Shown: piece after piece, positions 5,497-42,447 of the stretch
Numbering within the stretch: position 1 is the first letter of the stretch
Layout of the letters: each line of letters begins with the position of its first letter
From: Clostridia bacterium
Lineage (GTDB): Bacteria; Bacillota; Clostridia; Oscillospirales; Acutalibacteraceae
Length of the DNA: 64,000 nt
Assembly: GCA_017465825.1 (NCBI GenBank)
Contig: JAFTVI010000036.1
Location: forward strand, 11,174 to 75,173
Reading direction: 5' to 3'
Translations under genes and position numbers: made by a program
The notes under the pieces: generated by a model
What the model was told of the DNA's origin: nothing
The model's database searches: none
Seen by the model: only the letters and a program-made list of their open reading frames with translations

Positions 5497-5503
5497 AAGA
5501 AGT

Positions 5504-5581
<78 letters not shown>

Positions 5582-5614
5582 ATATTTACTGGTTGCACCC
5601 TCAAGTGCCTTATT

Positions 5615-5643: not shown

Positions 5644-5710
5644 TAGTTTTTTATAAAAAAATTAAAATTTTTATCGGGCATCTTCGACAGGGAAGACACC
5701 CGATTGAATT

Positions 5711-7015: not shown

Positions 7016-7027
7016 AATATATCCTCC

Positions 7028-8419
7028 TTATCTACCGCCAATGTTGATTTTGCATTTTACTGCAGGACCGCCGTCGGATACAGCCATAGGCTGTTTTTTG
7101 CCGCAGTAACCCGAACACGCCCAATGTAATTCGTCAGAGAGCATATCAACAGTTTTCAGCGTTTCAAATGCAACACCCGAGATTGTGGTGTCACGGATAG
7201 CTCTGCCGAGCTTACCGTTTTTGATTTCATAACCCATTGTTATGCCGAACATAAACTCACCGGTGGTATCAGCCTGACCGTTCTGTGTTTTTGTAAGATA
7301 ATATCCGTTATCAATAGATGCAATCATATCCTCAAGCCTATCCGTGCCTGGGAGAATTGCAGTATTTCTCATTCTAACAAGTGGCTCGTCGTCAAAGGAA
7401 TGTGCTCTTGCATTGCCGCAGGGCTTCATTCCGAAGTGAACTGCACTTTCCTTGTTGTTCATATAGCCTGTAAGAATACCGTTTTCAATAAGAACAGCGT
7501 CTTCGCAGGGAGTGCCCTCGTCATCAACATATACGGGCAGGGGAACAGTCTTGCCGAATGCGGTGTGAGCGTAATCTATAATGGTGATTTTATCCGATGC
7601 AACCTGCTTGCCTAAGTTTGTAGCCGCAACGGAGCCTGCAAGCACAAGATCCGCTTCAACCGTATGACCTACCGCCTCGTGTGCAATCATACCTGCAATT
7701 GACGAATCTATAATACAGTCGCATACGCCTGCCTCGGAGAAAACACCCTCTTTTTTAGCCATAAGCTTTTGATAAAGCTCTTCAATTTTATCGTAGAGTG
7801 CATCGGGAGAAGTGAATACATCTGTAAAATATCCTCTTGCACAGTCCATAACCTCAAAAAGCTCAACGTTGGAGCCGTCATTGGCTTCAGCACTCATATC
7901 AACGTAAATACAGCTCCTCGGCGAAACCGAATATGCCGAACTGCCTGTGCTCACGTGTAAAAGGCGCTCACTGCTGTCGCATCTTATCATAACACTTCTG
8001 CTTGAAAGGTCGGGATATTTGTTTGCTATATAGTCGTCAAGCTCTTTTGCAAAATCAAGCAGAAGCTTCTGCGGTACATCAACGATTTTTGTTGTATCGG
8101 TGTAATTGACAACGGGTGCATCATAAAGTGCAGGCTTGTTTTTGTTGACACGCCTGTCAAGAAACAGCGCATTATCCCTTGCGGCATTTAAAACAGCCTT
8201 GACGCTTTCGTCGCTGTATTCGCCTACGGAAGAGAAGCCGTAAACACCGTTTTTGTAAACTCTTGCGCTGATACCGCTTGCAGTTACTCTTGAATTACCC
8301 ACAAGATTGCCCGATACAATGCTGATACCGCAGTTTGTATCAATCTGTGTCCTGATTTCGGTGTAATCCGAAACATCGGCTATATGCTTTGAAATTAAAT
8401 CATTTAACAAAAGATTCAC
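7028..8419 (-). CDS. tldD: TldD-family metalloprotease
   Basis: 463 aa with the zinc motif ..GMIAHEAVGHTVEADL.. GTG start 3 nt after the upstream stop; TTG at 8410 is an alternative. Confidence 0.85.
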   Translation of the reverse strand: MNLLLNDLISKHIADVSDYTEIRTQIDTNCGISIVSGNLVGNSRVTASGISARVYKNGVYGFSSVGEYSDESVKAVLNAARDNALFLDRRVNKNKPALYDAPVVNYTDTTKIVDVPQKLLLDFAKELDDYIANKYPDLSSRSVMIRCDSSERLLHVSTGSSAYSVSPRSCIYVDMSAEANDGSNVELFEVMDCARGYFTDVFTSPDALYDKIEELYQKLMAKKEGVFSEAGVCDCIIDSSIAGMIAHEAVGHTVEADLVLAGSVAATNLGKQVASDKITIIDYAHTAFGKTVPLPVYVDDEGTPCEDAVLIENGILTGYMNNKESAVHFGMKPCGNARAHSFDDEPLVRMRNTAILPGTDRLEDMIASIDNGYYLTKTQNGQADTTGEFMFGITMGYEIKNGKLGRAIRDTTISGVAFETLKTVDMLSDELHWACSGYCGKKQPMAVSDGGPAVKCKINIGGR

Positions 8420-20800: not shown

Positions 20801-22473
20801 GTTATAACCAACTCGCCGTAGGAGTTGATTTCAGTTGATGTGATGCCGATACCGTCTTCACCGTCAGCACCGTTTACACCGTTAGTGCCATCCTTACCAT
20901 CTGCACCTTTGATTGTACCGAGATTGAGCTGTGTGCCGTTTGACAATGTAATTTCAAGCTGTGCATTATCATTGATTATGATGTTTTCAATGCCTACACC
21001 GTCAACACCGTCTTTTCCGTTAGTACCGTCCTTGCCATCTGTGCCATTGATACCGTCTTTACCGTCAGTGCCGTTTGTTCCATCTTTGCCGTTTGCTCCG
21101 ACAACTACGCCTAAATTATCAACGATATTATTTGAATAAGTGAGAACAAGCTCACCTTTGGCGTTGATTTCAGACTTGACAATACTTATACCGTCTTCGC
21201 CGTCTTTACCGTCAGCACCATCTTGTCCATCTTTGCCATCAACACCATCTGTGCCGTTAATGCCGTCTTTACCGTCTGAACCGTTAGTGCCGTCAATACC
21301 ATCTTTACCGTCAGCGCCGATAACAACACCAAGATTTGAACGCTGATTATTTGAATATGTAAGCACAAGTTCACCGTCGGAGTTGATTTCAGCCCCGACT
21401 ACACCTATACCGTCAGCACCGTCTTTGCCGTCTGCGCCGTTGGTGCCATTGATACCGTCCTTGCCGTCGACACCATCAGCACCGTCAGTCCCGTTTTCAC
21501 CTACTATTACACCAAGGTTTGCGGTTGTGCCGTCTGAATATGTAAGAACAAGCTCACCTGCATTGTTAATAACGGATGCTGTTATGCTGATACCGTCAGT
21601 ACCATTTATACCGTTAATGCCGTCCTTACCGTCAACGCCATCAGTACCGTTAGTACCATCAGCACCGTCTTTGCCATCAACACCGTCTTTGCCATCTTTT
21701 CCATGGGTGCCATCCTTGCCGTCAATGCCGTTTGTACCGTCAATGCCATCTTTACCGTCAGCACCGATGACAACTCCCAGATTAGCACTCTGACCGTTGG
21801 AGTATGTAAGTACTAATTCGCCGTTTTCGTTGATTTCGGAATTTGTTACGCTTACGCCGTCAGCACCGTTCATTCCAACAACTTTGTCAAGATTTATGCT
21901 TGTACCGTCGGAGAATGATAAAACAAGCTGACCGTTTTCATTTACATTTGCAGATGAAATGCTTGTGCCGTCTTTACCGTCAACGCCATCTTTACCGGCA
22001 GTGCCATTTGTGCCGTTAACTCCGTTTGTGCCGTTCTTGCCGTCAGCACCTTTTGCATTACCTAAATTGATAACAGTACCGTCCGAAAGCGTAAGCAAAA
22101 GCTCACCCTTTGAAGAAAAGGATGCTGTTTTTATGCTTGCAGAGTTCTTAGAAGCGGTTGCTTCAAGTGAAGCTGCCCACTCCGATTCAGTTCCGCTGTA
22201 ACCGTTTTCAACAGCGATCTCATAGGCTGATTTGCCTGAAAGAGAATCAAGCCATTCCTGCACAGTGCCTTCATAGCCCTGCTGAACGGCAAGCTCATAA
22301 GCAGATAAGCCGTTTGTAACTGTTGATGAAGCAGGTGTGCCGCCGTTTCTGTTGTGAATTATGGTTGCAATTCCTGCCGAAATGCCAATCATCAGCAAAA
22401 TCATAATAATTGCTACAATTATTTTTGTAATAACTATCTTCGTTCCCCTTTTTTCTTGTGTTTTTTGCTCCAT
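17815..22473 (-). CDS. giant surface protein: N-terminal TM anchor, ~20 beta-module/collagen-like (Gly-X-Y) units, BspA-type leucine-rich repeats
   Basis: Trimmed to ATG 22473 (SD GGAGGA), 1552 aa. TM IVITKIIVAIIMILLMIGISAGIATII. Repeats ..EINxxGELVLTYSDGTxxNLGVVVG(xDG)n. C-terminal LRRs ..C..L..ITIP.SVT.I...AF..C.. Confidence 0.9.
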   Translation of the reverse strand: MEQKTQEKRGTKIVITKIIVAIIMILLMIGISAGIATIIHNRNGGTPASSTVTNGLSAYELAVQQGYEGTVQEWLDSLSGKSAYEIAVENGYSGTESEWAASLEATASKNSASIKTASFSSKGELLLTLSDGTVINLGNAKGADGKNGTNGVNGTNGTAGKDGVDGKDGTSISSANVNENGQLVLSFSDGTSINLDKVVGMNGADGVSVTNSEINENGELVLTYSNGQSANLGVVIGADGKDGIDGTNGIDGKDGTHGKDGKDGVDGKDGADGTNGTDGVDGKDGINGINGTDGISITASVINNAGELVLTYSDGTTANLGVIVGENGTDGADGVDGKDGINGTNGADGKDGADGIGVVGAEINSDGELVLTYSNNQRSNLGVVIGADGKDGIDGTNGSDGKDGINGTDGVDGKDGQDGADGKDGEDGISIVKSEINAKGELVLTYSNNIVDNLGVVVGANGKDGTNGTDGKDGINGTDGKDGTNGKDGVDGVGIENIIINDNAQLEITLSNGTQLNLGTIKGADGKDGTNGVNGADGEDGIGITSTEINSYGELVITYSNGTTTNLGVVVGTDGKDGVNGKDGQDGQDGKNGSDGKDGTNGVDGISVTKTEINDNGELVIYYSDNTSANLGVVVGTKGKDGTDGTDGIDGTDGVNGKDGIGVSKSEINADGELVITYSDGTVQNLGAVVGSDGENGTNGTDGIGVTKTEINDNGELVVYYTDGTSANLGVVVGEDGQDGKDGQDGTDGKDGINGTDGKDGVNGADGKDGEDGIGISDVTVNADGELVLTFSDNSEINLGCIVGKDGTDGQNGSDGTDGKDGTDGIGIEKSEINSDGELVITYTDGTSETLGVVVGEDGKDGTNGTDGKDGADGKNGIGIEKTEINSDGELIVYYTDETSANLGVVVGADGQNGTNGIDGTDGKDGENGKDGVGIDTVNIDDDGNLTVTLTNGTTLTLGNIKGTDGIGIKKSEINANGELILTYTNGTITNLGKVVGADGKNGENGKDGVGISDVTISSEGALNITLSSGTVINLGNIKGKDGNGITKSQINSDGELVLTYTDGTSTNVGKVVGADGEDGQNGSDGVGIKTVTLSSTGELIITLTDNSVTNLGNIKGEKGDKGDKGEDGRGIASMEIVDGELVITYTDNTTEYAGYVDDAVADSVSMLNFTELDDGTYSVAIKSEYKDVATSISIPSNYKGKTVSTIKSRGFDGATALQNITIPKSITKIESIAFGSCSNISDFYYKGDITDWYNVSLIGGDSSTPFYDSNAEKRTMYVGNKNTAVTDLVIPNTVTTVSSFAFYNNTALESITFSESVSELKGNAFSYCENLKIVDFSKATNLTSIPSRSFLNCSSLESITLPENIQSIGTQAFQYCKSLKNIDMSYASKLTEIGSGAFMFCYNLENILLPNNITEIASETFYGCENLSNITIPNSVTSINSYAFYGCSSLTEITIPTAVKRIGEYAFYKSGLTSATFEVTDGWKAGGEDFSYTILRNGVEKTMTYSLTDPAKAASALKTRLKYTYSLGDESAGTSDELRYLEWYSMEWTRE
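19020..22134 (-). repeat. intragenic degenerate tandem-repeat array (about 20 units)
   Basis: The coding repeats of the giant gene, with unit length varying with the number of GGN-NNN-GAY/AAY triplets. Mirror Pro/Ser-rich ORFs appear on the plus strand. Confidence 0.85.
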
Positions 22474-22485
22474 ATAATGTTCCTC

Positions 22486-22509
22486 CTGATTGAAGAATTT
22501 TTCAATCAG
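22486..22509. promoter_or_regulatory. 9-6-9 perfect palindrome between the -10 box and SD of the giant gene (candidate operator)
   Basis: CTGATTGAA-GAATTT-TTCAATCAG, 22486-22494/22501-22509. Confidence 0.5.
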
Positions 22510-22510
22510 T

Positions 22511-22539
22511 ATTATACAATACAAAATGTGAACTGTCAA
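22511..22539 (-). promoter_or_regulatory. consensus sigma-A promoter of the giant surface-protein gene
   Basis: Minus strand TTGACA (22539-22534), 17 nt, TATAAT (22516-22511). Confidence 0.75.
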
Positions 22540-22603
22540 CACTAATTGTGACTATTTAAACATATTAAGTCTTTTTCATTTAAGATATATACGAGGTGAT
22601 TTG

Positions 22604-24216: not shown

Positions 24217-24314
24217 AAATTTGACCGCCTTTCATTTACACATAATTATTTTATCAAATTTTATTGAGCATAGCAATATAAAATGTAGTTTTTTTATTTT
24301 TTGTAAGAAAATAT

Positions 24315-24343
24315 TTGACATAAGTTCTCAATTGTTATACAAT
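24315..24343 (+). promoter_or_regulatory. sigma-A promoter of the aminotransferase/aldolase pair
   Basis: TTGACA (24315-24320), 17 nt, TACAAT (24338-24343). Confidence 0.7.
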
Positions 24344-24379
24344 ATGTATGAATATTATTTCCAAGGAGGTAAATTTTTT

Positions 24380-25861
24380 ATGGACACTCGTTTCGCAATA
24401 GAGAATTATTGTGACACACAGGCTATCACAAAACAGCTCGATGAGCTGATTGCACAGCCTATTTACACCATTAAACCCGAAGTTTTAAAGGACTATGAGG
24501 AAAATTATTTTGACAAAAAGTGCGCAAAGTCAAAGGAAATGATTGAAGAAGCAAAGCAGGTTATCCCCGGCGGCGTTCAGCACAACCTTGCTTTTAACTA
24601 TCCTTTCCCCATCGTAATCACAAAAGCTGACGGAATGAAGCTTTACGATGTTGACGGAAACGAATATTTCGATTTCCTTCAGGCAGGCGGCCCCACAGTT
24701 CTCGGCTCCAATCCTCCCGAAGTCCGTGAGCAGGTTATCGACCTTCTCAACACCTGCGGCCCCTCAACAGGTCTTTTCCACGAGTTTGAGTATAAGCTTG
24801 CAAAGAAGATCTCCGACAGCGTTGAAACCGTAGATATGTTCCGTATGCTCGGTTCAGGTACAGAGGCTTGTATGGCAGCTGTCCGTGTTGCAAGACTTGC
24901 TACAAAGAATAAAAACATCGTTAAGATGGGCGGCGCTTATCACGGCTGGTCAGATCAGTTAGGCTGGAGTATCCGTGTTCCCGGTTCAAAGTTTACACAG
25001 ACACACGGTGTACCCCTTTATCTCTATAAGCATACTCAGGAGTTCTTCCCCAACGACCTCGATTCTCTCGAGAGAGTTCTCAGAAGAAATCAGCTTTGCG
25101 GCGGTACTGCTGCTGTTTTCATTGAGCCTATCGGCCCCGAAAGCGGTACAAGACCTCTTGATTTCGATTTCAATAAGGGCGTTGAAAGACTTTGCCGTAA
25201 GTACGGCGCACTTCTCGTATTCGATGAGGTTGTTACAGGCTTCCGTATCGGTATGGCAGGTGCTCAGGGTTACTTCGGCGTATCTCCTGACCTTACAATC
25301 TTCGGTAAGGTAATTGCCGGCGGATATCCCGGTGCAGGCGGTATCGGCGGTAAGAAGGAATATATGAAGTACCTCGGCGCAGGTCTTGATGCAAGCGGCG
25401 AAAAGGTCAAGAAAGCATTTATGGGTGGCACAATGGCTGCTACTCCCATTTCCTGTGTTGCAGGTTACTATACTCTTGAAGCTATTGATAAGACAAATGC
25501 TTGCCAGAAGGCCGGTCAGATGGGTGACAGACTCACAAAGGGTCTTCAGGATCTCATCAAGAAGTACAATCTTCCCTTTGTAGCATTCAACCAGGGTTCA
25601 GTATGTCATCTTGAAACTGTCGGCACAATGCACTTTGCTGTTGATTGGGCAAGACCCTGGACAATTCCCAACGTTCTTTCACAGACAAGCGAAAGAAAGA
25701 AGGAAATGCAGCACATCGGTGCAGCATATATGGCAGAAGGCCTTGTTACTCTTGCAGGTTCAAGACTTTATACATCTGCTGCATATACTCCCGAGCTTAT
25801 CGACGAAGCACTTACCAGATTTGATAAGGTATTTGCAAACGTTGCTCTTAAGCAGGACTGA
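24380..25861 (+). CDS. class III (GSA-aminomutase-like) PLP-dependent aminotransferase
   Basis: Trimmed to ATG 24380 (SD GGAGGT), 493 aa. GGAYHGW, FDEVVTGFR, and FGKVIAGG with the PLP lysine. Confidence 0.8.
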   Translation: MDTRFAIENYCDTQAITKQLDELIAQPIYTIKPEVLKDYEENYFDKKCAKSKEMIEEAKQVIPGGVQHNLAFNYPFPIVITKADGMKLYDVDGNEYFDFLQAGGPTVLGSNPPEVREQVIDLLNTCGPSTGLFHEFEYKLAKKISDSVETVDMFRMLGSGTEACMAAVRVARLATKNKNIVKMGGAYHGWSDQLGWSIRVPGSKFTQTHGVPLYLYKHTQEFFPNDLDSLERVLRRNQLCGGTAAVFIEPIGPESGTRPLDFDFNKGVERLCRKYGALLVFDEVVTGFRIGMAGAQGYFGVSPDLTIFGKVIAGGYPGAGGIGGKKEYMKYLGAGLDASGEKVKKAFMGGTMAATPISCVAGYYTLEAIDKTNACQKAGQMGDRLTKGLQDLIKKYNLPFVAFNQGSVCHLETVGTMHFAVDWARPWTIPNVLSQTSERKKEMQHIGAAYMAEGLVTLAGSRLYTSAAYTPELIDEALTRFDKVFANVALKQD

Positions 25862-25884
25862 TATTTTGAAAGAGGTATAATAAT

Positions 25885-27111
25885 ATGGACATTTTGGAAG
25901 CAAAATCCGAAGTTGTCAAAGCCGGTCTTGAGCTTGTTCAATCCGGTCTTATAGCTCGTACTTGGGGAAATGTCAGCTGTCGTGTTGACGATGAATATTT
26001 CGTTATCACTCCCAGCGGCAGAAGCTATGAATCTCTCACTCCCGATGATATTGTTCTCGTTAAAATTGAGGACTGCTCATACGATTCTGAGATCAAGCCT
26101 TCCTCCGAAAAGGGAATACACGCTATGGCGTATAAAATGCGCAGTGATGTTAACTTTGTTATTCATACACATCAGAAAAATGCATCCGCAGTAAGCTTCC
26201 TCGGTTACGATATAAATATGCTTTCCGAGGACAGCCGCGAGATAATCGGTGCAGATATTCCCGTTGCATCATACGGACTTCCCGGCACAGGCAAGCTCCG
26301 CAAAGGCGTAACTGCCGCTCTTGAGCGTTCAGCATCAAAGGCTGTTGTTATGGCTCATCACGGCGCTCTGTGTATGGGTACAGATTATGAAGATGCATTT
26401 AAAGTTGCCGCTGAGCTCGAAAAAGTCTGCGAGGAGTTCCTTCTTGACAGATTGCACATCGTTTCAGGTAAGGTAAGCGACAATATTGCCGCTGTTGCCG
26501 AGCATATCGCAGAGGTAAGTGAGGGTGCCAAGAAACAGGCTATGATTTTTGCCCCTTATACGTCCGAGCGTGAAGGCGATACGATGCTTATGAATCCTGC
26601 TGAGGGCGGCGAATCCGTACGCATTGACCTTTCAAACGGCAATGAGGTTTCTCCCTGTGATGAATATCCCGAGAGTGCAGAGCTCCACAGAGCTATTTAC
26701 AATTCCCGTAAGGATGTAAACTGCATTATTCATTCTAAGAAGCCTGAAATTCTTTCAGCATCAAAAATGGGCGGTACGTTCAAGCCTCTGCTTGATGATT
26801 TTGCTCAGCTTATAGGTGTTACACTTCGCACAGGCGAGTATAACCCTGCAAATACGGCAAAAACCGCTAAAAAGGTTGTTAAAAAGCTTAAGGGCAGAAA
26901 TGCCGCATTGCTTAAGGACAACGGAGCTGTTTGCGTAGCAGGCGATATGTACGATGCTGAGGCTGTTGAAATGGTTCTTGAAAAAGAGCTTCGTACAGAT
27001 GCGGCGGCTAAAATGATCGGTGACGCAAAATATATTAACCCCGTTGAAGCACATCTTATGAGATTTATCTATAAGACAAAGTACTCCAAGAAGGCTAAGA
27101 CAAATAAATAA
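25885..27111 (+). CDS. tandem class II aldolase/adducin-domain protein
   Basis: 408 aa. The N-domain keeps E..IH, HTH and HHG metal ligands. The C-domain (from aa ~265) has the same fold pattern with ligands replaced (IIHSKK, KDNGAV). Confidence 0.75.
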   Translation: MDILEAKSEVVKAGLELVQSGLIARTWGNVSCRVDDEYFVITPSGRSYESLTPDDIVLVKIEDCSYDSEIKPSSEKGIHAMAYKMRSDVNFVIHTHQKNASAVSFLGYDINMLSEDSREIIGADIPVASYGLPGTGKLRKGVTAALERSASKAVVMAHHGALCMGTDYEDAFKVAAELEKVCEEFLLDRLHIVSGKVSDNIAAVAEHIAEVSEGAKKQAMIFAPYTSEREGDTMLMNPAEGGESVRIDLSNGNEVSPCDEYPESAELHRAIYNSRKDVNCIIHSKKPEILSASKMGGTFKPLLDDFAQLIGVTLRTGEYNPANTAKTAKKVVKKLKGRNAALLKDNGAVCVAGDMYDAEAVEMVLEKELRTDAAAKMIGDAKYINPVEAHLMRFIYKTKYSKKAKTNK

Positions 27112-32171: not shown

Positions 32172-35100
32172 TTAATATTCTATATAGCCTTCGAAAATAA
32201 GACTTGTATTACCTGTAAGTGAAACACACTCATCGGTGTAATTTACGATAAGGTCGCCGCCTTTGAGCTTGACTGTAATATCTGCACCCTTTTCGCAAAG
32301 ACCTAATTCGCAAGCCGCCGCAACTGCCGCACAGGCACCTGTACCGCAAGCATAGGTTTCGCCGTTACCGCGTTCCCATACACGCATACGGATTGTGCGC
32401 TTATCGACAACTCTTACAAATTCCGTGTTGATTTTTTCGGGGAAGTATTTAGCGTTTTCAAATTCGGGACCGATCTCCTGAAGATTGTATGCGTCAATGT
32501 GAGTGCCGAATACTACACAATGGGGGTTGCCCACAGATACACAGGTTACGTTGTATTCCTTGCCGTCAATTATAACGGGCTGGTCAATAACCTTGCCGGA
32601 AGTGATGTTTGTGGGTATTTTTTCAGCCTCGAATTCAGCCTTACCCATCATTACCTTAACAGCCTTGACCTTGTTGTTCTCTGTGTAAAGGTGTATTCTC
32701 TTAAGACCGACGGGGGTTTCAATTGTAAGATGTGTGTTGTTTACAATGCCGTGATCGTAGAGATATTTACCTGCACAGCGTAAGCCGTTACCTGCAATAT
32801 AACCCTTTGAGCCGTCTTTGTTGAACATCAGCATCTTAGCATTTGCAATATCGGATTTTTCAATCAGAACGATGCCGTCACTGCCGATACCGTAATGTCT
32901 GTTGCAGAAGTTGACTGCAAGCACCTCGGGAGCTGTAATTGCGCCGTCAAGATTGTCAAAGAAGATAAAGTCGTTACCGGAACCCTGCATTTTTGCAAAT
33001 TTGAGCTTCATAGGCTCCGAGCGGAGAGCGTTGATGTTAACAAGCTCTGTATTCTGCTGATTAAATCCGCTTGCAAGGATATCAGCAAGAACGTTTGCTG
33101 TGTCAATTGAAGTAAGAGTAGCAACAGAGAGCTGAAGAGCGCGTCTGTGAAGCTTGATGAAATCGTCAACAACATCAAGGGGAGTGCCTGTGTATACAAT
33201 ATACTTGATTTTACCGCTTTCAAGCAGATCCATACTTGTGTTGGACTCGTCGTAAAGCTTGTTTACAACAGTTACGTCAATATCAACACTGCCGATTGCC
33301 TTTGCCGTGCCTTCTGTAGCGTAAATCTTAAGACCAAGGTCGTGGAATTTACGAGCAAGCTCAATTACTTCGGGCTTGTCAGCATCCTTGACTGTAATAT
33401 ATACACCCATTTCCTTGCGGTGTGTTTTGGGAGTAATTTCAAAGCCTGCGGAAACAAGACCCTTGAAAAGTGCCTCTTCGATTGTTTTACCGACACCGAG
33501 AACTTCGCCTGTTGACTTCATTTCGGGACCAAGGCTTGAGTTTGCATCAAGCAGCTTTTCAAATGAGAATACGGGAACTTTAACTGCAAAGTAGGGAGGT
33601 GTCTTGTAAAGACCTGTGCCGAAGCCCAAATCTTTAAGGGGAGTACCTGTCATAACCTTTGTTGCAATGTCAACCATAGGTACGCCTGTAACCTTGCTGA
33701 TGTAGGGAATCGTTCTTGATGCTCTGGGATTAACCTCGATAACGTAAAGCTCATTATCGTAAATAAGGTACTGAATGTTAACAAGACCCTTTGTGCCCAG
33801 TGCAAGTGCAAGGTTTGTTGAGCAGTCAATGATTGTCTGCTTCATTGTGTCGCGAAGATTGTAGGGAGGATATACCGCAATTGAGTCACCGCTGTGAACA
33901 CCGGCTCTTTCAATGTGCTGCATAATACCGGGGATAAGAACATCCTTACCGTCGGAAATAACGTCAACCTCAAGCTCTGAACCCATCATATATTTGTCAA
34001 CAAGTACGGGGTTTTCAATTTTGCCGGAGAGAATGATGTTCATATACTTATAAACATCATCGTCGTTGTATGCGATAGTCATATTCTGACCGCCGATAAC
34101 GTATGAAGGACGGAGAAGAACGGGGTACTCAAGGGTGTGAGCCGCATTGAGCGCTTCTTCAAGAGTGATAACGCCCATTCCCTTGGGACGCTTGATGTTG
34201 AACTTCTCAAGAAGTGCATCAAAACGCTCTCTGTCCTCAGCAGTGTCAATACCTTCTGCAGACGTGCCGAGAATTGTAAAGCCGTTTTCGTCAAGGAATT
34301 TTGTAAGCTTGATAGCTGTCTGTCCGCCGAAAGCAACAACTATTCCTTCGGGATTCTCTTTCTTTATAACGTTAAGAACGTCTTCGGGAGTGAGAGGCTC
34401 GAAGTAAAGTCTGTCAGCAGTGTCAAAGTCTGTTGAAACAGTTTCGGGGTTGTTGTTGATGATAACAACTTCATATCCAAGCTCTTTGAGTGTCCATACG
34501 CAGTGAACGGAAGAGTAGTCAAATTCGATACCCTGACCGATTCTGATAGGACCTGAGCCGAGAACGATAATCTTCTTTGCAGTGTTATCCTTAAGAAGCT
34601 CTTTTGCTTCGCAGTCCTTGTCGTAGGTTGAATAGAAGTAGGGTGTGGATGCCTTGAACTCAGCCGCACAGGTGTCAACCATCTTGTAGGATGCATCAAG
34701 AGTCATATGCTCTTTTGTTCCGCTGATTCTTTCAAGTGCAGCATCGGGATAGCCGTACTTTTTACCCTGAATATAAAGCTCATCGGTAAGTCTGTTTGCA
34801 ATTGCCTTTTCGTACTGTACAAGATTGTTGAGCTTATCAATAAACCACTCATCAATTTTTGTTATATCGTGGATTGTTTCTGTTGAAACACCTCTCTTAA
34901 GCGCTTCAAAAACAGTGAAAAGACGGATATCATCAACATCTTCAAGCTTTTTAACGATGTCGATTTCGGGATCTGCAAGCTTTTTGAGATTGAGCGTATC
35001 AAGTGAAATTTCAGCACCTCTTACAGCCTTCATAATAGCCGCCTCAAAGCTGGGAGCAATCGCCATAACTTCACCCGTAGCCTTCATCTGTGTGCCGAGC

Positions 35101-36212
35101 TTGCGCTTTGCATTTATGAACTTATCAAAAGGCCATTTTGGGAGCTTGATTACGCAGTAGTCAACGGTAGGTTCGTTACAGGCATAGGTGCAGCCTGTAA
35201 CTTCGTTCCTGATTTCATCAAGAGTATAACCGAGAGCAATCTTAACTGCAACCTTAGCAATCGGGTAGCCCGTAGCCTTTGATGCAAGAGCAGATGAACG
35301 TGAAACTCTGGGGTTAACCTCGATAACCGCATATTCAAATGTTTCGGGGTTGAGAGCAAACTGACAGTTACAGCCGCCTTCGATGCCCAGTGAATCAATA
35401 ATTTTAAGTGATGCACTGCGGAGCATATTGTACTCTTTGTTTGAAAGAGTAACAGCAGGAGCGATAACAATACTGTCACCTGTATGAACACCGACGGGGT
35501 CGAAGTTTTCCATTGAACAAACGGCAATTGAGTTACCCATTGAGTCACGGATAGCTTCAAATTCAATTTCTTTCCAACCGTAGATGTATTTTTCAACAAG
35601 AATCTGATTGATAGGGGAGAGAAGAAGACCGTTGTTGACAATAGGCATAAGCTCTTCTTCGTTGTATGCAACACCGCCGCCTGCACCGCCCAATGTGAAA
35701 GCGGGACGGATGATAACGGGGAAACCGATTTTTCTTGCAATTTCAAGAGCTGTGTCGGGGTCGTTTGCAATATCGGAGGGAATACAGGGCTGACCGATGG
35801 ATTCCATTGTTTCCTTGAACAGCTCTCTGTCCTCACTCTTGTCAATAGCCTCTGCGTTTGTACCGATAAGCTTTACGCCGTGCTTTGCAAGGAAACCGCT
35901 CTTTGCAAGCTGCATACCGATTGTAAGACCTGTCTGACCGCCGAGACCTGCAAGAACGGAGTCGGGCTTTTCTTTCTCGATGATTCTCATTACTGTTTCT
36001 TCTGTAAGAGGCTCGAGATAGATTTCGTCTGCGTTTGCATTATCTGTCATAATGGTAGCAGGGTTTGAGTTGACAAGTACAACGTCAAGACCTTCGTTTT
36101 TAAGAATACGGCAAGCCTGTGTGCCTGCATAGTCAAATTCGGCAGCCTGACCTATAACGATAGGACCTGAACCGATAACAAGTACCTTTTTAATGTCTTT
36201 ATTAAGTGGCAT
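32172..36212 (-). CDS. carB: carbamoyl-phosphate synthase large subunit fused in frame to a DapF-like (diaminopimelate epimerase fold) domain
   Basis: 1346-aa uninterrupted ORF. aa 1-1067 are full-length CarB. aa 1068-1346 (nt 33011-32172) start MKLKFAKMQGSGNDF.. and have the GNPH and ACGTGACAA DapF motifs. Confidence 0.9.
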   Translation of the reverse strand: MPLNKDIKKVLVIGSGPIVIGQAAEFDYAGTQACRILKNEGLDVVLVNSNPATIMTDNANADEIYLEPLTEETVMRIIEKEKPDSVLAGLGGQTGLTIGMQLAKSGFLAKHGVKLIGTNAEAIDKSEDRELFKETMESIGQPCIPSDIANDPDTALEIARKIGFPVIIRPAFTLGGAGGGVAYNEEELMPIVNNGLLLSPINQILVEKYIYGWKEIEFEAIRDSMGNSIAVCSMENFDPVGVHTGDSIVIAPAVTLSNKEYNMLRSASLKIIDSLGIEGGCNCQFALNPETFEYAVIEVNPRVSRSSALASKATGYPIAKVAVKIALGYTLDEIRNEVTGCTYACNEPTVDYCVIKLPKWPFDKFINAKRKLGTQMKATGEVMAIAPSFEAAIMKAVRGAEISLDTLNLKKLADPEIDIVKKLEDVDDIRLFTVFEALKRGVSTETIHDITKIDEWFIDKLNNLVQYEKAIANRLTDELYIQGKKYGYPDAALERISGTKEHMTLDASYKMVDTCAAEFKASTPYFYSTYDKDCEAKELLKDNTAKKIIVLGSGPIRIGQGIEFDYSSVHCVWTLKELGYEVVIINNNPETVSTDFDTADRLYFEPLTPEDVLNVIKKENPEGIVVAFGGQTAIKLTKFLDENGFTILGTSAEGIDTAEDRERFDALLEKFNIKRPKGMGVITLEEALNAAHTLEYPVLLRPSYVIGGQNMTIAYNDDDVYKYMNIILSGKIENPVLVDKYMMGSELEVDVISDGKDVLIPGIMQHIERAGVHSGDSIAVYPPYNLRDTMKQTIIDCSTNLALALGTKGLVNIQYLIYDNELYVIEVNPRASRTIPYISKVTGVPMVDIATKVMTGTPLKDLGFGTGLYKTPPYFAVKVPVFSFEKLLDANSSLGPEMKSTGEVLGVGKTIEEALFKGLVSAGFEITPKTHRKEMGVYITVKDADKPEVIELARKFHDLGLKIYATEGTAKAIGSVDIDVTVVNKLYDESNTSMDLLESGKIKYIVYTGTPLDVVDDFIKLHRRALQLSVATLTSIDTANVLADILASGFNQQNTELVNINALRSEPMKLKFAKMQGSGNDFIFFDNLDGAITAPEVLAVNFCNRHYGIGSDGIVLIEKSDIANAKMLMFNKDGSKGYIAGNGLRCAGKYLYDHGIVNNTHLTIETPVGLKRIHLYTENNKVKAVKVMMGKAEFEAEKIPTNITSGKVIDQPVIIDGKEYNVTCVSVGNPHCVVFGTHIDAYNLQEIGPEFENAKYFPEKINTEFVRVVDKRTIRMRVWERGNGETYACGTGACAAVAAACELGLCEKGADITVKLKGGDLIVNYTDECVSLTGNTSLIFEGYIEY

Positions 36213-37279
36213 TACTTGTCACCTCCCATAAGTGATACGAATTTATCGTAAAGAACAACAGCGTCTGTAGCGCCTTCACATCCGCCGGGATAGAACTGAA
36301 CGGAGAATGCCTTGTCGGCATAATCAATACCTGCACAGGTGTTGTCATTAACATTAATAAAGCTTACCGTGCTGTTTTTGCTGTCAAGTGAATCTGAAAC
36401 AACAGCGTAGCCGTGATTCTGGCTTGTAACAAAAACTTTTCCGCTTGCAAGCTCTTTTACAGGCTGGTTTGAACCTCTGTGACCGTATTTGAGCTTTTCG
36501 GTCTTTGCGCCTGCGGCGAGAGCCATAAGCTGATGACCGAGAGAAATACCGAACATAGGAATTTTACCCATAAGCTTTTTGATCTCAGCAACAATTGCAT
36601 CGCAGTCAGCAGGATCTCCGGGGCCGTTGGATATAACCATTCCGTCAACGCCGAGAGCGAGGATTTCCTCAGCAGTTGTGTTGTAAGGTACAGTTATAAC
36701 AGTGCATCCGCGTGCAAGAAGCTCATTTTCAATTGAAAGCTTTGCACCTAAATCAAGAACTGCAACCTTGTACTTTTCATTTTCTGCAGTGTGTACAGAT
36801 TTTTCGGTACAGCTTACAGCCTTGACTGCATCCTTGATTCTGTATTCTGCGAGGGCCTTTAAATCAACCTTTGAAGGGTCGTCTGTGATACAGGCATTCA
36901 TAACGCCGTTTTCACGGATAATCTTTGTTATTTCTCTTGTATCAACATCGCAGATTGATACAATGTTGCTTTCTGTAAGGAAAGGTAAAATATTTTCTTC
37001 ACATCTGAAGTTTGAAGGCTTCTCACACCATTCTCTTACCACGTAACCGTTTACAACGGATTTATCAAGGAGCTTGTCCTCAGAAATCATACCGTAGTTA
37101 CCGATAAGAGGGAATGTCTGCATAACGATCTGACCGTAATATGCTGCATCAGTCAATGTTTCAATGTAGCCGACCATTCCGGTGGTAAAAACGAGTTCGC
37201 CTGTGACTTCGCCGTCAGCGGCAAAACCCTTACCCTCGAAAATGTGACCGTCCTGCAGAACGATGTACATTTTTTTCAT
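36212..37279 (-). CDS. carA: carbamoyl-phosphate synthase small subunit homologue with inactivated glutaminase triad
   Basis: 355 aa from ATG 37279 (SD AAGGA 8 nt upstream). Aligns along its length to CarA. TAATG overlap with carB. The triad residues are Ser/Tyr/Gly instead of Cys/His/Glu. Confidence 0.85.
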   Translation of the reverse strand: MKKMYIVLQDGHIFEGKGFAADGEVTGELVFTTGMVGYIETLTDAAYYGQIVMQTFPLIGNYGMISEDKLLDKSVVNGYVVREWCEKPSNFRCEENILPFLTESNIVSICDVDTREITKIIRENGVMNACITDDPSKVDLKALAEYRIKDAVKAVSCTEKSVHTAENEKYKVAVLDLGAKLSIENELLARGCTVITVPYNTTAEEILALGVDGMVISNGPGDPADCDAIVAEIKKLMGKIPMFGISLGHQLMALAAGAKTEKLKYGHRGSNQPVKELASGKVFVTSQNHGYAVVSDSLDSKNSTVSFINVNDNTCAGIDYADKAFSVQFYPGGCEGATDAVVLYDKFVSLMGGDK

Positions 37280-37322: not shown

Positions 37323-38246
37323 TTATTCTTTTTCCATATACTGGTCACGCATAAGCTTGACTAATACTGCTTTCTGGGCGTGAAGTCTGTTTTCAGCCTC
37401 TTCAAAAATCTCATTTGCGTGAGCTTCAAATACTTCAGCTGTAATTTCTTCTTCTCTGTGAGCAGGCAGACAGTGAAGCACCATAGCATCAGGATGCGCA
37501 ACGGACATAAGTGAAGAATTTATCTGATAGCCTGCAAAAATCTTCTTTCTTTCTTCGGCTTCACTTTCTTCACCCATAGATGCCCATACGTCGGTGTAAA
37601 GCACGTCTGCATTCTTTGCCGCCTCGTAAATATCAGTTGTAAGAGTGAATCTGCCCGTTGTTTCAGCCCATTTTATGATGTCAGCATCAGGCTCGTAGCC
37701 TGCGGGGCAGGCAACAGCCACTTCCATACCTACCTTAAGACAGCCTACGATAAGCGAGTTTGCCATATTGTTACCGTCACCGATAAATGTGAGCTTCATA
37801 CCCTTGAAGGTGTTTTTGAATTCACGGATGGTCATAAGGTCTGCAAGCACCTGACAGGGATGGCAGTAATCTGTAAGACCGTTGATTATGGGTATTGAAC
37901 CGTACTGAGCAAGAGTTTCAACTTCTTCCTGATCGAAGGTTCTTATCATAATGCCGTCAAGGTATCTTGAAAGAACTCTTGCGGTATCTTCAACAGGCTC
38001 ACCTCTGCCAAGCTGAGTGTTAGCATTGCTTAAAAACAGCGCGGAGCCGCCAAGGTCGTACATACCTACTTCAAAGGAAACTCTTGTTCTTGTGGATGAC
38101 TTTGCAAAAATCATACCGAGAGTTTTACCCTTGAGGTAATGATGCTCAATATTGTGCTTTTTCTCGTATTTTAACTGATCTGCAAGATTGAGGATTGTAA
38201 GAATCTCTCTTTCCGAAAGATCGCCGAGCTTGAGTAAATGCTTCAT
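37323..38246 (-). CDS. argF: ornithine carbamoyltransferase
   Basis: 307 aa. STRTRVSFE, HPCQ, DVWASMG, HCLPA. ATGA overlap with argD. Confidence 0.9.
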   Translation of the reverse strand: MKHLLKLGDLSEREILTILNLADQLKYEKKHNIEHHYLKGKTLGMIFAKSSTRTRVSFEVGMYDLGGSALFLSNANTQLGRGEPVEDTARVLSRYLDGIMIRTFDQEEVETLAQYGSIPIINGLTDYCHPCQVLADLMTIREFKNTFKGMKLTFIGDGNNMANSLIVGCLKVGMEVAVACPAGYEPDADIIKWAETTGRFTLTTDIYEAAKNADVLYTDVWASMGEESEAEERKKIFAGYQINSSLMSVAHPDAMVLHCLPAHREEEITAEVFEAHANEIFEEAENRLHAQKAVLVKLMRDQYMEKE

Positions 38247-39406
38247 TCTTCAATGACCTCCGTTATAATATCCATCGCTTTTTTCAGTTCCTCATCGGAA
38301 ATGTTAAGCGGCGGTAAAAGTCTGATTTTGGTTTTTGCCGTTAGAGGAAGTACACCTCTTTCAATGCACTTTGAAACGATTGCTTTTGAATCCTTTGTTG
38401 TTTCAATGCCGAGCATAAGACCCATTCCGCTGACGCTTTTTACATTTTTGCATTCGCTGAGTCTTGCTTTTATGTACTCGCTCTTTTTTACAACTCCGTT
38501 AAGGAATTCGTCATCAAGTCGTTTTACAACGCTGAGTGCGCCTGCGGCAACTGCAGGATTCATACCGTATGTTGAGCCGTGCGAGCCGGGAGTGAGCGTG
38601 TCAGCAGTCTTTTCGCCGAACATACAGACACCCATAGGCAGACCGCCTGCAATACCCTTTGCGGTTGATACGATATCAGGCATTATATCAAAATTCTGAT
38701 ATGCATACATCTTGCCTGTTCTGCCGTTACCTGTCTGCACTTCGTCAACTATTAACAGTATATCACTTTCTTTGCAAAAATCATATACTTTTTTTATAAA
38801 ATTTTTATCTAAAGCAATAACTCCGCCTTCGCCCTGTACAATTTCCATCATAATTGCACAAACATTGCCGTTGCAGATTTCTTTCAGCTTCTCAAAATCG
38901 TTTGCGGGCGCATATGCAAATCCCTCAGGGAACGGACCGAATGTGGTGTGGAATGTGTCCTGTCCCGTTGCGGTAAGAGTTGCAAGAGTTCTGCCGTGAA
39001 AGCTCTGATTGAGAGTTACAATAACGTTTCTGTCGGGATTATTGTATTTATCAAGAGAGTATTTTCTTGCTGTTTTTATTGCACATTCATTGGCTTCAGC
39101 ACCGGAATTGCCGAAGAAGCACTTCTTCATTCCCGATTTTTCGCAAAGAATTTTTGCAAGCTCTGCGCCGGGGGTGGTGTAGTAAAGATTTGACGTGTGC
39201 TGAATTGTATTAAGCTGCTGTGCTACGGCATCTGCCCATTCTTTGTCGCAGTAGCCGAAGATGTTAACGCCGATACCGCTGCCCATATCAATGTATTCCT
39301 TGCCGTTTTCGTCAACTGCAACTGCACCGTGACCGCTTACAAGCGTGACGGGATACCTTGCATAAGTATTGGCTATATACTTTTTATCTGTTTCAATAAC
39401 TGTCAT
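38243..39406 (-). CDS. argD: acetylornithine aminotransferase
   Basis: 387 aa, class III aminotransferase positioned within the arg operon. Confidence 0.85.
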   Translation of the reverse strand: MTVIETDKKYIANTYARYPVTLVSGHGAVAVDENGKEYIDMGSGIGVNIFGYCDKEWADAVAQQLNTIQHTSNLYYTTPGAELAKILCEKSGMKKCFFGNSGAEANECAIKTARKYSLDKYNNPDRNVIVTLNQSFHGRTLATLTATGQDTFHTTFGPFPEGFAYAPANDFEKLKEICNGNVCAIMMEIVQGEGGVIALDKNFIKKVYDFCKESDILLIVDEVQTGNGRTGKMYAYQNFDIMPDIVSTAKGIAGGLPMGVCMFGEKTADTLTPGSHGSTYGMNPAVAAGALSVVKRLDDEFLNGVVKKSEYIKARLSECKNVKSVSGMGLMLGIETTKDSKAIVSKCIERGVLPLTAKTKIRLLPPLNISDEELKKAMDIITEVIEE

Positions 39407-39415
39407 AAGATTGCC

Positions 39416-40270
39416 TCATTCTACAAACATTGTACCGATACCTTCATCGGTGAGAGTTTCAATAAGAATTGAGTGGGGGATTCTGCCGTCTATGATGAAT
39501 ACTTTGTTAACACCCATTCTTATAGCTTCCGTACAGCACTGCACCTTGGGGATCATACCGCCCGATATAATACCTTCGTGCATAAGCTCGGGAGCATCAC
39601 TTACATAAAGCTTTTTGATAAGCGAATCAGGATCATCCTTATCACGGAGAAGTCCGGGGATGTCGCTCATATTTATAAGACTTTCAGCCTTGAGCGCCCC
39701 TGCAATATAAGCCGCCGCAGTGTCAGCGTTGATGTTGTAAGTGTTATTTTCATCATCATAGCCGATTGTGGAAATAACAGGAATGTAATCTCTTTCAAGA
39801 AGGTCGGTGATAAGCTCAGTGTTTATGTTTACAATGTTGCCCACATAACCGTGAACGTCATCGAGCTTTTCAGCTTTGATCATATGGTCATCAACACCGC
39901 ACAGACCTACAGCCTTGCCGCCCTTGTTGTGAATCTGATTTACAAGATTCTTGTTGATTTTACCTGCAAGAACCATCTGTACAATGTCTGCAGTTTCTTT
40001 GTCTGTAACACGCAAGCCGTCAACAAATTCGGACTTTTTGCCTGTTTTGTTGAGCATTTCGTTGATTTCGGGACCGCCGCCGTGAACAAGGACAACCCTT
40101 ATTCCGATAAGTGAAAGAAGAACGATATCACCGATAACAGCTTCTTTGAGTTCTTCGCTTATCATTGCGTTGCCGCCGTATTTTACAACGATAGTCTTGT
40201 TTCTGTATTTCTGTATATAGGGGAGAGCCTGTGTAAGAATTTCTGCTCTCTGCGGATTTGTAATATTCAT
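39416..40270 (-). CDS. argB: acetylglutamate kinase
   Basis: 284 aa from ATG 40270 (SD GGTGA 5 nt upstream; the track start 40279 is GTG). ..IVVKYGGNAM.. AAK family. Confidence 0.9.
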   Translation of the reverse strand: MNITNPQRAEILTQALPYIQKYRNKTIVVKYGGNAMISEELKEAVIGDIVLLSLIGIRVVLVHGGGPEINEMLNKTGKKSEFVDGLRVTDKETADIVQMVLAGKINKNLVNQIHNKGGKAVGLCGVDDHMIKAEKLDDVHGYVGNIVNINTELITDLLERDYIPVISTIGYDDENNTYNINADTAAAYIAGALKAESLINMSDIPGLLRDKDDPDSLIKKLYVSDAPELMHEGIISGGMIPKVQCCTEAIRMGVNKVFIIDGRIPHSILIETLTDEGIGTMFVE

Positions 40271-40280
40271 ATCTGTCACC

Positions 40281-41495
40281 TTAAGTTCTGTAATCTCCGT
40301 TGATTTTAACGTAATCGTATGTCAGGTCGCAACCTCTTGCAACTGCCGAAGTGTCACCGTCGTTGAGATTGATGTTGACCTTGATTTCATCTTCAAGAAG
40401 AATCTCTTTGGCAATTTCTTCGCTGAACTCCACGCCTGCGCCGTTTTCACAGACAACAACAGTGCCTTTCGCAGATGTGAAGCTTACGTCAATCTTTGTT
40501 ACGTCAACGTCTGCACCGCTGTAACCTATTGCACAAAGTACACGTCCCCAGTTTGCATCAGCACCGAACATTGCCGCCTTGAAAAGGGAAGAGCAGATAA
40601 CGGACTTTGCTACAGTCTTTGCAGTCTGCCAATCCTTGCCGCCGTCAACAAAACATTCAACAAGCTTTGTTGCACCTTCGCCGTCTTTTGCAATTGCTTT
40701 GCAGAGCTTTTCCGTAATCATAGCAAGAGCATTGCAGAATATATCAAAATCCTCGCCCTCTGCAACGATTTCGGCATTTTCAGCCATACCGTTTGCCATA
40801 ACTGCAACCATATCGTTTGTTGATGTGTCGCCGTCAATGCTTATCATATTAAAGCTCTTCTGTGCATCGGCATAAAGTGCCTTGTGGAGCATTTCGGGGG
40901 AGATTGCCGCGTCAGTTGTGATAAACACAAGCATCGTTGCCATGTTGGGGTGAATCATACCCGAGCCCTTTGCAATACCGCCCATTCTGCACTCTTTGCC
41001 GCCGATATTGAAGCTTACTGCAAATTCCTTGAGTATAGTATCGGTAGTCATTATTGCCTCAGCCGCATTGCCGCTGTTATCATAGCCTAAATTGCTTACA
41101 AGCTCGTTCATACCCTCTGCAATGGGAGTAATGTCAAGAGGCTGACCGATAACGCCTGTTGATGCAACGATAACATCGTTCTTATCTATCGAAACAGCAT
41201 CAGCCGTGAGCTCACACATCTTTTCTGCAATTTCAATGCCGTTTGCATTGCAGGTGTTAGCGTTGCCGCTGTTGCAGATAACAGCCTGAGCCTTTCCGTC
41301 TGCAATGTTTGCTTTTGTAACATAGATGGGAGCGCCTTTTACAAGATTAAGAGTGTAAATAGCCGCCGCAGATGCTTTCTTATCGCTCACGATAAGTGCA
41401 AGATCCCTTTTTGTCCTGTTTTTTCTGATTCCGCAGTGAATACCGCTTGCTTTAAATCCTTTTGCGGCACAAACGCCGCCGTTGATATATTCCAT
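40281..41495 (-). CDS. argJ: bifunctional glutamate N-acetyltransferase / amino-acid acetyltransferase
   Basis: 404 aa from ATG 41495 (SD AAAGGA), after the argC stop. Autoprocessing site ..HPNMATMLVF.. Confidence 0.9.
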   Translation of the reverse strand: MEYINGGVCAAKGFKASGIHCGIRKNRTKRDLALIVSDKKASAAAIYTLNLVKGAPIYVTKANIADGKAQAVICNSGNANTCNANGIEIAEKMCELTADAVSIDKNDVIVASTGVIGQPLDITPIAEGMNELVSNLGYDNSGNAAEAIMTTDTILKEFAVSFNIGGKECRMGGIAKGSGMIHPNMATMLVFITTDAAISPEMLHKALYADAQKSFNMISIDGDTSTNDMVAVMANGMAENAEIVAEGEDFDIFCNALAMITEKLCKAIAKDGEGATKLVECFVDGGKDWQTAKTVAKSVICSSLFKAAMFGADANWGRVLCAIGYSGADVDVTKIDVSFTSAKGTVVVCENGAGVEFSEEIAKEILLEDEIKVNINLNDGDTSAVARGCDLTYDYVKINGDYRT

Positions 41496-41508
41496 TTCAA
41501 AATTCCTT

Positions 41509-42447
41509 TCAAAGTACAAGTGAGCTTGTTTCATCGGTGCCCATAGAGATGTTCATACACTGAATTGCCGCACCCGATGCGCCCTTGCCTAAATTATCAA
41601 AAATACTTGTGATGAATATTCTTTCATCGTTGCCTGAAATAAATATTTTCATACTGTCTTTTCCCGTCATTTCGTTGGCAGAAACGAAGCCTGCAGGCAC
41701 ATCGCCGCCGTGAAGGGGAAGAACAGTTATAAACCTGCTGTCTTTGTAAAACTGAGCAAACATACTGTAAACATCGCTAAGAGTTGCATTGCCTGCAAGA
41801 TTTGTAAACAGATTTACTGTTGTAGCCATTCCGCTGTAATAGTCATCAACAATGGGTGTGAATATGGGAGCATATTCAAGACCCGTAACAGCCTTCATCT
41901 CTTTGAGATGCTTGTGATTCTGTGTAAGACCGTACTGTCTGGGAGCGAAAAGGTCGTCAGTCTTGCCGTGTTCGTATTGCTCGATCATTTTTTTGCCGCC
42001 GCCGCTGTAGCCTGTAAGTGAATGCGAAACAACGGGATAATCTTTCGGCATTATTCCCGATGCGATAAGGGGATACACGATTGAAATGAATCCGCTTGCG
42101 TGACAGCCGGGAACGGCAATTCTTTTTGATGTTTCAATTTTCTTTCTGTGTTCAGCCGATAACTCTGCAAAACCGTACGCCCAGTCGGGAGAAGTTCTGT
42201 GTGCCGTTGATGTATCAATGATAACAGTTTTGTCATTTTCGCAAAGTGAAACAGATTCTCTTGCGGCATCGTCGGGCAGGCAGAGGAATGTTATATCACT
42301 CTCATTTATTAATCTTCGTCGCTCCTGTGCGTCTTTGCGCTTTTCTTCGCTTATATGCATAAGTGTGATGTCATCACGCTTGCTTAAACGGTCAAACAAT
42401 CTCAGACCTGTTGTACCCTGGTTTCCGTCAATAAATACCTTTGTCAT
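41509..42447 (-). CDS. argC: N-acetyl-gamma-glutamyl-phosphate reductase (short type)
   Basis: 312 aa, ..VPGCHASGF.. active-site Cys. First gene of the arg cluster. Confidence 0.85.
   Translation of the reverse strand: MTKVFIDGNQGTTGLRLFDRLSKRDDITLMHISEEKRKDAQERRRLINESDITFLCLPDDAARESVSLCENDKTVIIDTSTAHRTSPDWAYGFAELSAEHRKKIETSKRIAVPGCHASGFISIVYPLIASGIMPKDYPVVSHSLTGYSGGGKKMIEQYEHGKTDDLFAPRQYGLTQNHKHLKEMKAVTGLEYAPIFTPIVDDYYSGMATTVNLFTNLAGNATLSDVYSMFAQFYKDSRFITVLPLHGGDVPAGFVSANEMTGKDSMKIFISGNDERIFITSIFDNLGKGASGAAIQCMNISMGTDETSSLVL

Follow-up and report, generated by a model that had tools for sequence, protein, structure and literature searches.

Introduction

Carbamoyl phosphate synthetase (CPS) is a textbook glutamine amidotransferase. 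The Escherichia coli laboratory mutants C269S and C269G have lost the use of glutamine but keep ammonia-dependent synthesis, and the C269G mutant was reportedly described by Rubino et al. in 1986. Here we report on carA, a gene for a CPS small subunit with a predicted dead glutaminase site, which lies next to the arginine biosynthesis genes of a Clostridia bacterium in a stretch of 64,000 nucleotides (contig JAFTVI010000036.1, positions 11,174 to 75,173, forward strand); this whole stretch is referred to as the window, and all coordinates below are counted within it. We argue, at a probability of about 0.68, that its product CarA is a pseudo-glutaminase kept as a partner of the large subunit CarB, and that the resulting CPS would use free ammonia.

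Human CPS1 has Ser in place of the Cys; its ancestral tunnel is probably closed, with external ammonia taking another route into the enzyme, and blocking or perforating the tunnel of E. coli CPS leaves the activity with external ammonia normal (de Cima et al. 2015, PMC4655335). Liu et al. (2021, PMC8121099) cite isolated E. coli CarB as working with ammonium. The same paper states that all eubacterial CPS known at that date are glutamine dependent and, on fitness evidence, proposes an ammonium-dependent CPS in the orphan CarB2 of Bacteroides thetaiotaomicron (BT3866), for which no small subunit was found (Liu et al. 2021). We found no description of a bacterial CarA without the catalytic triad in full-text searches, by which subscription journals are thinly covered, and the class of Cys-less CarA appears to be undescribed.

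A CarA protein without the catalytic triad

The 355-amino-acid translation, which includes both PMFGISLGHQLMALAAGAKT and AFSVQFYPGGCEGA, is a CarA by all its database matches: Pfam identifies CPSase_sm_chain (PF00988, 156 bits) followed by GATase (PF00117, 132 bits), and the NCBIfam models NF009475 (424 bits, cut-off 221) and TIGR01368 (401 bits, cut-off 307) are both exceeded. A phmmer search of the Protein Data Bank (PDB) returned E. coli chains as its five best matches, headed by 1c30_B, the C269S mutant; the alignment with E. coli CarA spans CarA residues 2-351 and is free of gaps for about 35 residues around either triad motif. An earlier, sequence-only reading of this DNA had proposed that Cys269 is replaced by Ser, His353 by Tyr and Glu355 by Gly (E. 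coli numbering, used throughout), and this alignment agrees, as do the codons, whose positions are confirmed on the minus strand. In MAFFT alignments of 120 and of 369 homologues it is again Ser, Tyr and Gly, and not Cys, His and Glu, that fall in the triad columns, which hold Cys, His and Glu without exception in 144 of 144 triad-bearing CarA. Ser thus occupies the place of the nucleophile in the G-x-C-x-G-x-Q elbow, and Tyr and Gly those of the two residues that complete the triad, so that by these residues the window CarA falls outside the glutamine-hydrolysing CPS small subunits (EC 6.3.5.5) and the class I triad amidotransferases. The changes reach further: Ser47, a glutamine contact, is Ala, and of the tunnel-wall residues G359, P360 and H361 the first alone is kept, the others being substituted (P360A, H361T).

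Across the 144 canonical proteins S47, K202, G241, P242, G243, C269, G271, H312, Q351, H353, E355, G359, P360 and D362 are invariant or nearly so; across 217 Cys-less CarA, positions 47, 202, 353 and 355-362 are variable or deleted. To judge by these residues, the loss of glutaminase chemistry in the window CarA is close to certain: a CarA without Cys269, His353, Glu355 and Ser47 cannot plausibly hydrolyse glutamine, which makes ammonia dependence the best inference. An AlphaFold model, built on a 34-sequence alignment, predicts a correctly folded protein (predicted local distance difference test (pLDDT) 89.4, predicted template modelling (pTM) score 0.89). Superposition gives a template modelling (TM) score of 0.90 with the E. 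coli CarA chains 1jdb_C and 1c30_B and of 0.87 with the N-terminal moiety of human CPS1, and pLDDT drops below 50 at residues 334-338 only, which correspond to E. coli residues 357-361 in the wall of the ammonia tunnel.

Parts of the former active site have been spared. Seventeen of the 120 best database matches lack the triad, and 16 of these 17 form one clade with the window CarA in a neighbour-joining (NJ) tree with the triad columns masked. In 16 of 16 clade members, and mostly across the 217 Cys-less proteins, G241, G243, L270, G271, H272, Q273, Q310, N311, H312, G313, Y314, Q351, F352 and P354 are kept. Such conservation of pocket and oxyanion residues would suit a dead glutaminase domain that acts as a sensor, its pocket binding glutamine or a related metabolite and allosterically tuning CarB to the nitrogen status of the cell, with ammonia as the substrate. 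It would be in keeping with this that the large-subunit ATPase of the E. coli C269S enzyme is stimulated when glutamine binds, and that the GATase-like domain is under purifying selection, with a ratio of nonsynonymous to synonymous divergence (dN/dS) of 0.10-0.17. The loss of Ser47, invariant in canonical CarA, and the variation of K202 within the clade speak against a sensor, and folding or the CarB interface could conserve the same motifs. We consider a sensor possible but rather unlikely; in any event it refines the pseudo-glutaminase reading and does not exclude it.

Selection on carA

The same CarA protein, identical in sequence, is encoded on contigs of two other sequencing runs (SRR12529335 and SRR12529362), and the CarA of a relative (locus L129), 90% identical, has the same Ser, Tyr and Gly and also the same codons at 269 and 353. 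Because the alignments, the model, the other runs and this relative all concur, neither chance nor sequencing error accounts for the substitutions. Nei-Gojobori comparison of the window with L129, at a dS of about 0.8-1.0 that is near saturation yet usable, gave a dN/dS of 0.065 for the whole of carA (0.065-0.10 across comparisons, at a dS of about 0.9-1.2), made up of 0.033 for the N-terminal domain and 0.097 for the GATase-like domain; the values for neighbouring genes are 0.017 (carB), 0.020 (the DapF domain fused to CarB), 0.032 (argF) and 0.064 (argD). Since the ratio is far below 1, purifying selection on carA is clear, and the sequence-only claim that the gene is maintained is borne out.

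The constraint on triad-less CarA is nevertheless relaxed, though not lost. The ratio of CarA to CarB divergence is 3.8-5.9 in pairs of triad-less loci versus 1.7-2.7 among the triad-bearing sister lineages (loci L005, L132 and L133), and the ratio of GATase to N-terminal domain divergence is 1.3-2.7 versus 0.95-1.07. A CarA that evolves, relative to CarB, roughly twice as fast as in the sister lineages is what might be expected if carA were decaying, as a recent pseudogene or an assembly error, with CarB working alone or the CPS being non-functional. An artefact or pseudogene is ruled out by the identical protein in the other runs and the low dN/dS. The frame is intact, carA is full length in every clade member examined, even though the clade extends down to 62% identity, its translational coupling to carB is conserved and its predicted fold is confident, all of which leaves decay with next to no credibility.

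Operon context and the DapF fusion

The features of the locus are collected in Table 1. An AAGGA resembling a Shine-Dalgarno (SD) sequence lies ~9 nt before the carA ATG at 37279, and the TAA of carA overlaps the ATG of carB as TAATG (36214-36210), as the sequence-only reading had it and as the minus strand confirms; both the adjacency to carB and the TAATG coupling are kept in relatives. The pattern TGMATWWWWATKCA is matched once in the window, at the ARG-box-like palindrome, where 0.10 matches are expected, and this motif is also found ~85 nt upstream of argC in L001, L002, L003, L129 and L132. The operon is probably under ArgR control, and this would therefore be the arginine-pathway CPS. 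An Rfam gathering scan of the window yielded three tRNAs only, and no riboswitch near the operon.

Table 1. Features of the arg-car locus in the window
Feature	Position	Strand	Remarks
carA, CPS small subunit with predicted dead glutaminase site	36212-37279	-	S47A, C269S, H353Y, E355G, P358E, P360A, H361T (E. coli numbering)
Ser codon TCT at the Cys269 position	36544-36542	-	minus-strand read; one nucleotide step from the TGT of sister lineages
TAT-CCC-GGC, Tyr-Pro-Gly in place of His353-Pro354-Glu355	36284-36292	-	TAT 36292-36290, GGC 36286-36284
Diverged loop, residues 334-338 (CEGAT)	36266-36280	-	E. coli S357-H361, ammonia-tunnel wall; from alignment and model
argC-argJ-argB-argD-argF	37323-42447	-	directly upstream of carA, same orientation; argF-carA gap 43 nt
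argC	41509-42447	-	
argF	37323-38246	-	
carB part of the large-subunit gene, amino acids 1-1060	33033-36212	-	coupled to carA via TAATG
DapF domain at the CarB C-terminus	32172-33017	-	both catalytic Cys motifs: GNGLRC, ACGTGACA
carB::dapF, whole	32172-36212	-	1346 amino acids; followed by NUDIX and MatE genes, also on the minus strand
Promoter-like TTGACT-16-TAAAAT	42511-42484	-	upstream of argC
ARG-box-like palindrome TGCATAAATATTCA	42533-42520	-	8 nt before the -35 hexamer

CarB is canonical-looking, with the tunnel-gate residues E217, C232, A251 and A314 conserved, and carries a C-terminal DapF domain that matches TIGR00652 with 259 bits, keeps both catalytic Cys motifs and looks like an ordinary epimerase. 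The sequence-only reading had connected the loss of the triad with this fusion as a possible source of nitrogen. We know of no role as a nitrogen donor for DapF, an epimerase, and the sister lineages have the same fusion, of 1346-1350 amino acids, with an intact Cys-His-Glu CarA. Since the fusion is also present beside intact CarA, it is unrelated to triad loss, and as an alternative nitrogen route it is ruled out by this association together with its intact Cys motifs. CarB::DapF occurs in the window and at loci L001-L003, L005, L008, L016, L020, L031, L048, L079, L081, L089, L103, L111, L118, L123, L132 and L133; it is common in Oscillospirales-type Clostridia, occurs in one Treponema metagenome-assembled genome (MAG) too, and accompanies intact and dead CarA alike. 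There is no evident functional reason for a fusion of CPS with diaminopimelate (DAP) epimerase.

An alternative in the sequence-only reading was that nitrogen comes from another partner. A glutaminase or amidotransferase encoded elsewhere might dock on CarA-CarB or raise the local ammonia concentration, and the enzyme would then still depend on glutamine. Neither tblastn with E. coli CarA and the window genes nor Pfam and NCBIfam searches of large open reading frames (ORFs) found a second carA, carB, GATase or pyr gene within the 64-kb window, which, as regards the second intact carA that the same reading had thought worth seeking, holds one carA and one carB only. No other GATase or CarA-like sequence is present in the conserved operon of seven relatives either; the tunnel-lining loop of CarA is diverged, and the DapF fusion, by its sequence an intact epimerase, is not specific to triad loss. 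We consider a partner in trans very improbable.

Proposed mechanism

In the pseudo-glutaminase reading CarA would fold as normal without hydrolysing glutamine, and selection would retain it as a structural or allosteric partner that CarB continues to require. The N-terminal interface domain of CarA could make CarB more stable or more active, and the preserved pocket might still bind a ligand. CarA and CarB::DapF together would produce carbamoyl phosphate from free ammonia, bicarbonate and two ATP, and the CPS of the arginine operon would correspond, as a bacterial enzyme of two subunits, to vertebrate CPS I and to the E. coli C269S and C269G mutants. That glutaminase activity is absent, that free ammonia serves in vivo and why CarA is retained are all inferred from the sequence. 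The sequence-only interpretation survives in its substitutions, in the maintenance of the gene and in a probable dependence on ammonia, and has to be given up in its link to DapF and in its view of the case as singular.

Several points weigh against this reading. The affinity of E. coli CPS for ammonia is poor, so that either ammonia would have to be abundant or CarB adapted for it to be used physiologically. The pocket motifs listed above, from G241 to Y314, are invariant in the clade, for which a purely structural role offers no obvious explanation. A second, glutamine-using CPS, if present in the genome, would blur the physiological weight of this one. Finally, the apparent enrichment of Cys-less carA in gut and rumen genomes, described below, may owe something to the make-up of the database.

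Evolutionary history of the triad-less clade

The clade reaches 18 members when a GTDB genome and one cluster representative are added, and is probably one of Acutalibacteraceae, the nearest GTDB genome (L073) being labelled as such. All members examined share the synteny manA, ABC-F, argCJBDF, carA, carB::dapF, NUDIX and MatE. It divides into an S-Y/C-G subclade, comprising the window CarA and the database proteins P0002 and P0003, and a second subclade with G-(T/A/S)-(D/E). The triad positions are accordingly S or G; Y, C, T, A or S; and G, D or E, a free variation that is expected where sites no longer matter. Ser47, on the other hand, is replaced by Ala in all 16 tabulated members, and S47A may be an older lesion common to them. 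At position 269 the clade has the Ser codon TCT or the Gly codons GGC and GGT, against TGT and TGC for Cys in the sister lineages; since a single step leads from Cys to either Ser or Gly, and two steps lie between Ser and Gly, each subclade probably replaced its Cys independently.

Distribution of Cys-less CarA in bacteria

The window CarA had been treated as a singular oddity in the sequence-only reading, and is instead a member both of the 18-member clade and of a large, recurrent Cys-less class found in several phyla. When 1.84 billion 50%-identity representatives were searched exhaustively with phmmer, 2043 matches had E <1e-30. Among the best 150 of these 2043, a sample biased toward triad-less relatives because the query itself is triad-less, 49 have Cys-His-Glu and ~95 are triad-less, Gly being the usual residue at 269. 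GTDB species genomes were also scanned with a DNA pattern for P-x-x-[GA]-x-[GA]-L-G-H-Q, which gave at least 120 matches; 118 of the matches listed are carA, mostly followed by carB. The carriers among the matches listed include Oscillospiraceae, Acutalibacteraceae, Ca. Fimenecus, Scatosoma, Christensenellaceae and Lachnospiraceae (many of them gut or rumen Clostridia MAGs), and Syntrophomonas, Pelotomaculum, Alistipes/Rikenellaceae, Erysipelotrichaceae, Planctomycetes, Treponema and some Actinobacteria and Proteobacteria. Also among them are the cultured Bacillaceae Lederbergia lenta NBRC 16444, L. galactosidilytica, L. graminis, Siminovitchia fordii DSM 16014, S. acidinfaciens, Sporosarcina cascadiensis and Sporosarcina obsidiansis. 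Many carriers are gut, rumen or digester MAGs, and these habitats are ammonia-rich.

In an NJ tree of 369 sequences Cys-less CarA falls into 47 separate clades, and Fitch parsimony gives a minimum of 20 changes of state, a count of losses that is approximate since the tree is crude and its sampling biased. On these sequences the tree supports repeated independent loss of the triad, and a single ancient family of Cys-less paralogues is not supported by it. The wider proposition, that a dead CarA beside a normal CarB is common and has arisen many times in bacteria, the remnant of its pocket perhaps serving as an allosteric sensing module, seems to us evenly poised.

Cys-less carA is found in arg clusters, in loci of the pyrB-pyrC-carA-carB type (judged by matches resembling aspartate carbamoyltransferase (ATCase) and by gene spacing) and as stand-alone carA-carB pairs. 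Eight loci of cultured Bacillaceae, from Bacillus sp., Lederbergia, Siminovitchia and Sporosarcina (L054, L060, L064, L072, L105, L110, L113 and L117) encode a CarA with the triad G-E/Q/H-E that lies, except in L105, ~1.3 kb downstream of an ATCase-like gene; this pyrB-pyrC-carA-carB-like layout suggests that the pyrimidine CPS of these bacteria may also be glutamine-independent. In Alistipes/Rikenellaceae and related MAGs (L012, L040, L043, L063 and L102) a Cys-less CarA with G-H/N-E is encoded directly upstream of CarB, and this Bacteroidota type may bear on the orphan CarB2 of B. thetaiotaomicron. Ca. Fimenecus has two kinds of stand-alone Cys-less carA-carB pair, L022 and L035 versus L024 and L075, one kind following a gene for a class A penicillin-binding protein and the other adjoining Mbeg1-like and QueT genes; a genome of the Acutalibacteraceae, to which this genus belongs, may therefore contain two or more CPS loci.

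Two further cases stand apart. In Streptococcus agalactiae ATCC 13813 (L026, NZ_GL636070.1 856001-864000) the ORFs 4066-4623, 4672-5742 and 5798-7396 encode, in this order, a phosphoribosyltransferase-domain protein (PF00156), a CarA-like protein with G-Y-E and a 532-amino-acid protein that matches only part of the ATP-grasp domain of CarB and its oligomerisation domain, and is 25% identical to the window CarB. The last two form a short and unusual CPS-like pair, here in a cultured pathogen. A distant CarA (P0209, NLB82326.1, 44% identity) from a Clostridiaceae MAG has Ser-Tyr-Gly like the window CarA and is named 'glutamine-hydrolyzing carbamoyl-phosphate synthase small subunit', from which it follows that automatic names ignore the triad.

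Other features of the window

Apart from the arg-car locus the window encodes, at 17815-22542 on the minus strand, a 1575-amino-acid protein in which collagen-like Gly-rich repeats (of Scl2/SclB-type; 179 bits, short of the family cut-off) are combined with a C-terminal part resembling leucine-rich-repeat adhesins; by these similarities it is probably a large surface adhesin. On the plus strand, 24221-27111 encodes a 546-amino-acid aminotransferase resembling glutamate-1-semialdehyde aminomutase, with ~100 additional amino acids at its N-terminus and a score below the family cut-off, followed by a 408-amino-acid protein of which only the first ~190 residues match class II aldolase/epimerase, below the cut-off.

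Implications

The recurrence of triad-less CarA suggests that ammonia-using CPS is common in bacteria, contrary to the statement of universal glutamine dependence made in 2021 (PMC8121099), and if this is true ammonia-dependent CPS would be a widespread bacterial strategy. A maintained triad-less CarA in more than 100 species, many of them gut and rumen anaerobes, would imply that free ammonia passes directly into arginine in many bacteria, and in some lineages probably into pyrimidines as well. This bears on how metabolic models treat nitrogen flow in the communities of gut and rumen, on automatic annotation, in which some triad-less CarA are named "glutamine-hydrolyzing", and on the reasons why dead amidotransferase subunits are kept. 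Cultured carriers such as Lederbergia lenta NBRC 16444, Siminovitchia fordii DSM 16014 and the Sporosarcina species make the idea directly testable.

Comparison with known systems

Among known systems, the window CarA can be compared with the canonical glutamine-hydrolysing CarA/PyrAA proteins (TIGR01368), for example those of the sister lineages L005, L132 and L133, which share with it the domains, the length, the operon argCJBDF-carA-carB::dapF-NUDIX-MatE and 67% identity. They differ in keeping Cys-His-Glu and Ser47, and in having a GATase domain that evolves no faster than the N-terminal domain.

The E. coli C269S mutant (PDB 1c30 and 1c3o) resembles the window CPS in its two-subunit architecture and in the Ser that replaces the nucleophile, where most natural relatives have Gly. 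Unlike this point mutant, the window CarA has also lost His353, Glu355 and Ser47, has a remodelled loop at 356-361, and has evolved for long under selection. The CarB2 of B. thetaiotaomicron is likewise a gut bacterial CPS proposed to use ammonium directly; CarB2, however, is without a small subunit, whereas the window CPS has kept one that is in all likelihood catalytically dead, and the evidence for CarB2 is genetic, whereas the window CPS is known from its sequence.

Vertebrate CPS I (EC 6.3.4.16; CPS1, PDB 5dot and 5dou) similarly retains a glutaminase-like domain in which Cys has become Ser. Its product goes to the ornithine carbamoyltransferase step and its nitrogen comes from free ammonia (PMC4655335), and in both respects the window CPS can be likened to it, its own use of ammonia being presumed. 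The differences are that CPS I is a single fused polypeptide that needs N-acetylglutamate, whereas the window CPS is encoded by two ORFs, with DapF attached to CarB, and that the evolutionary origins of the two are independent. By analogy, the window CPS may work like CPS I although it is not a member of the CPS I lineage.

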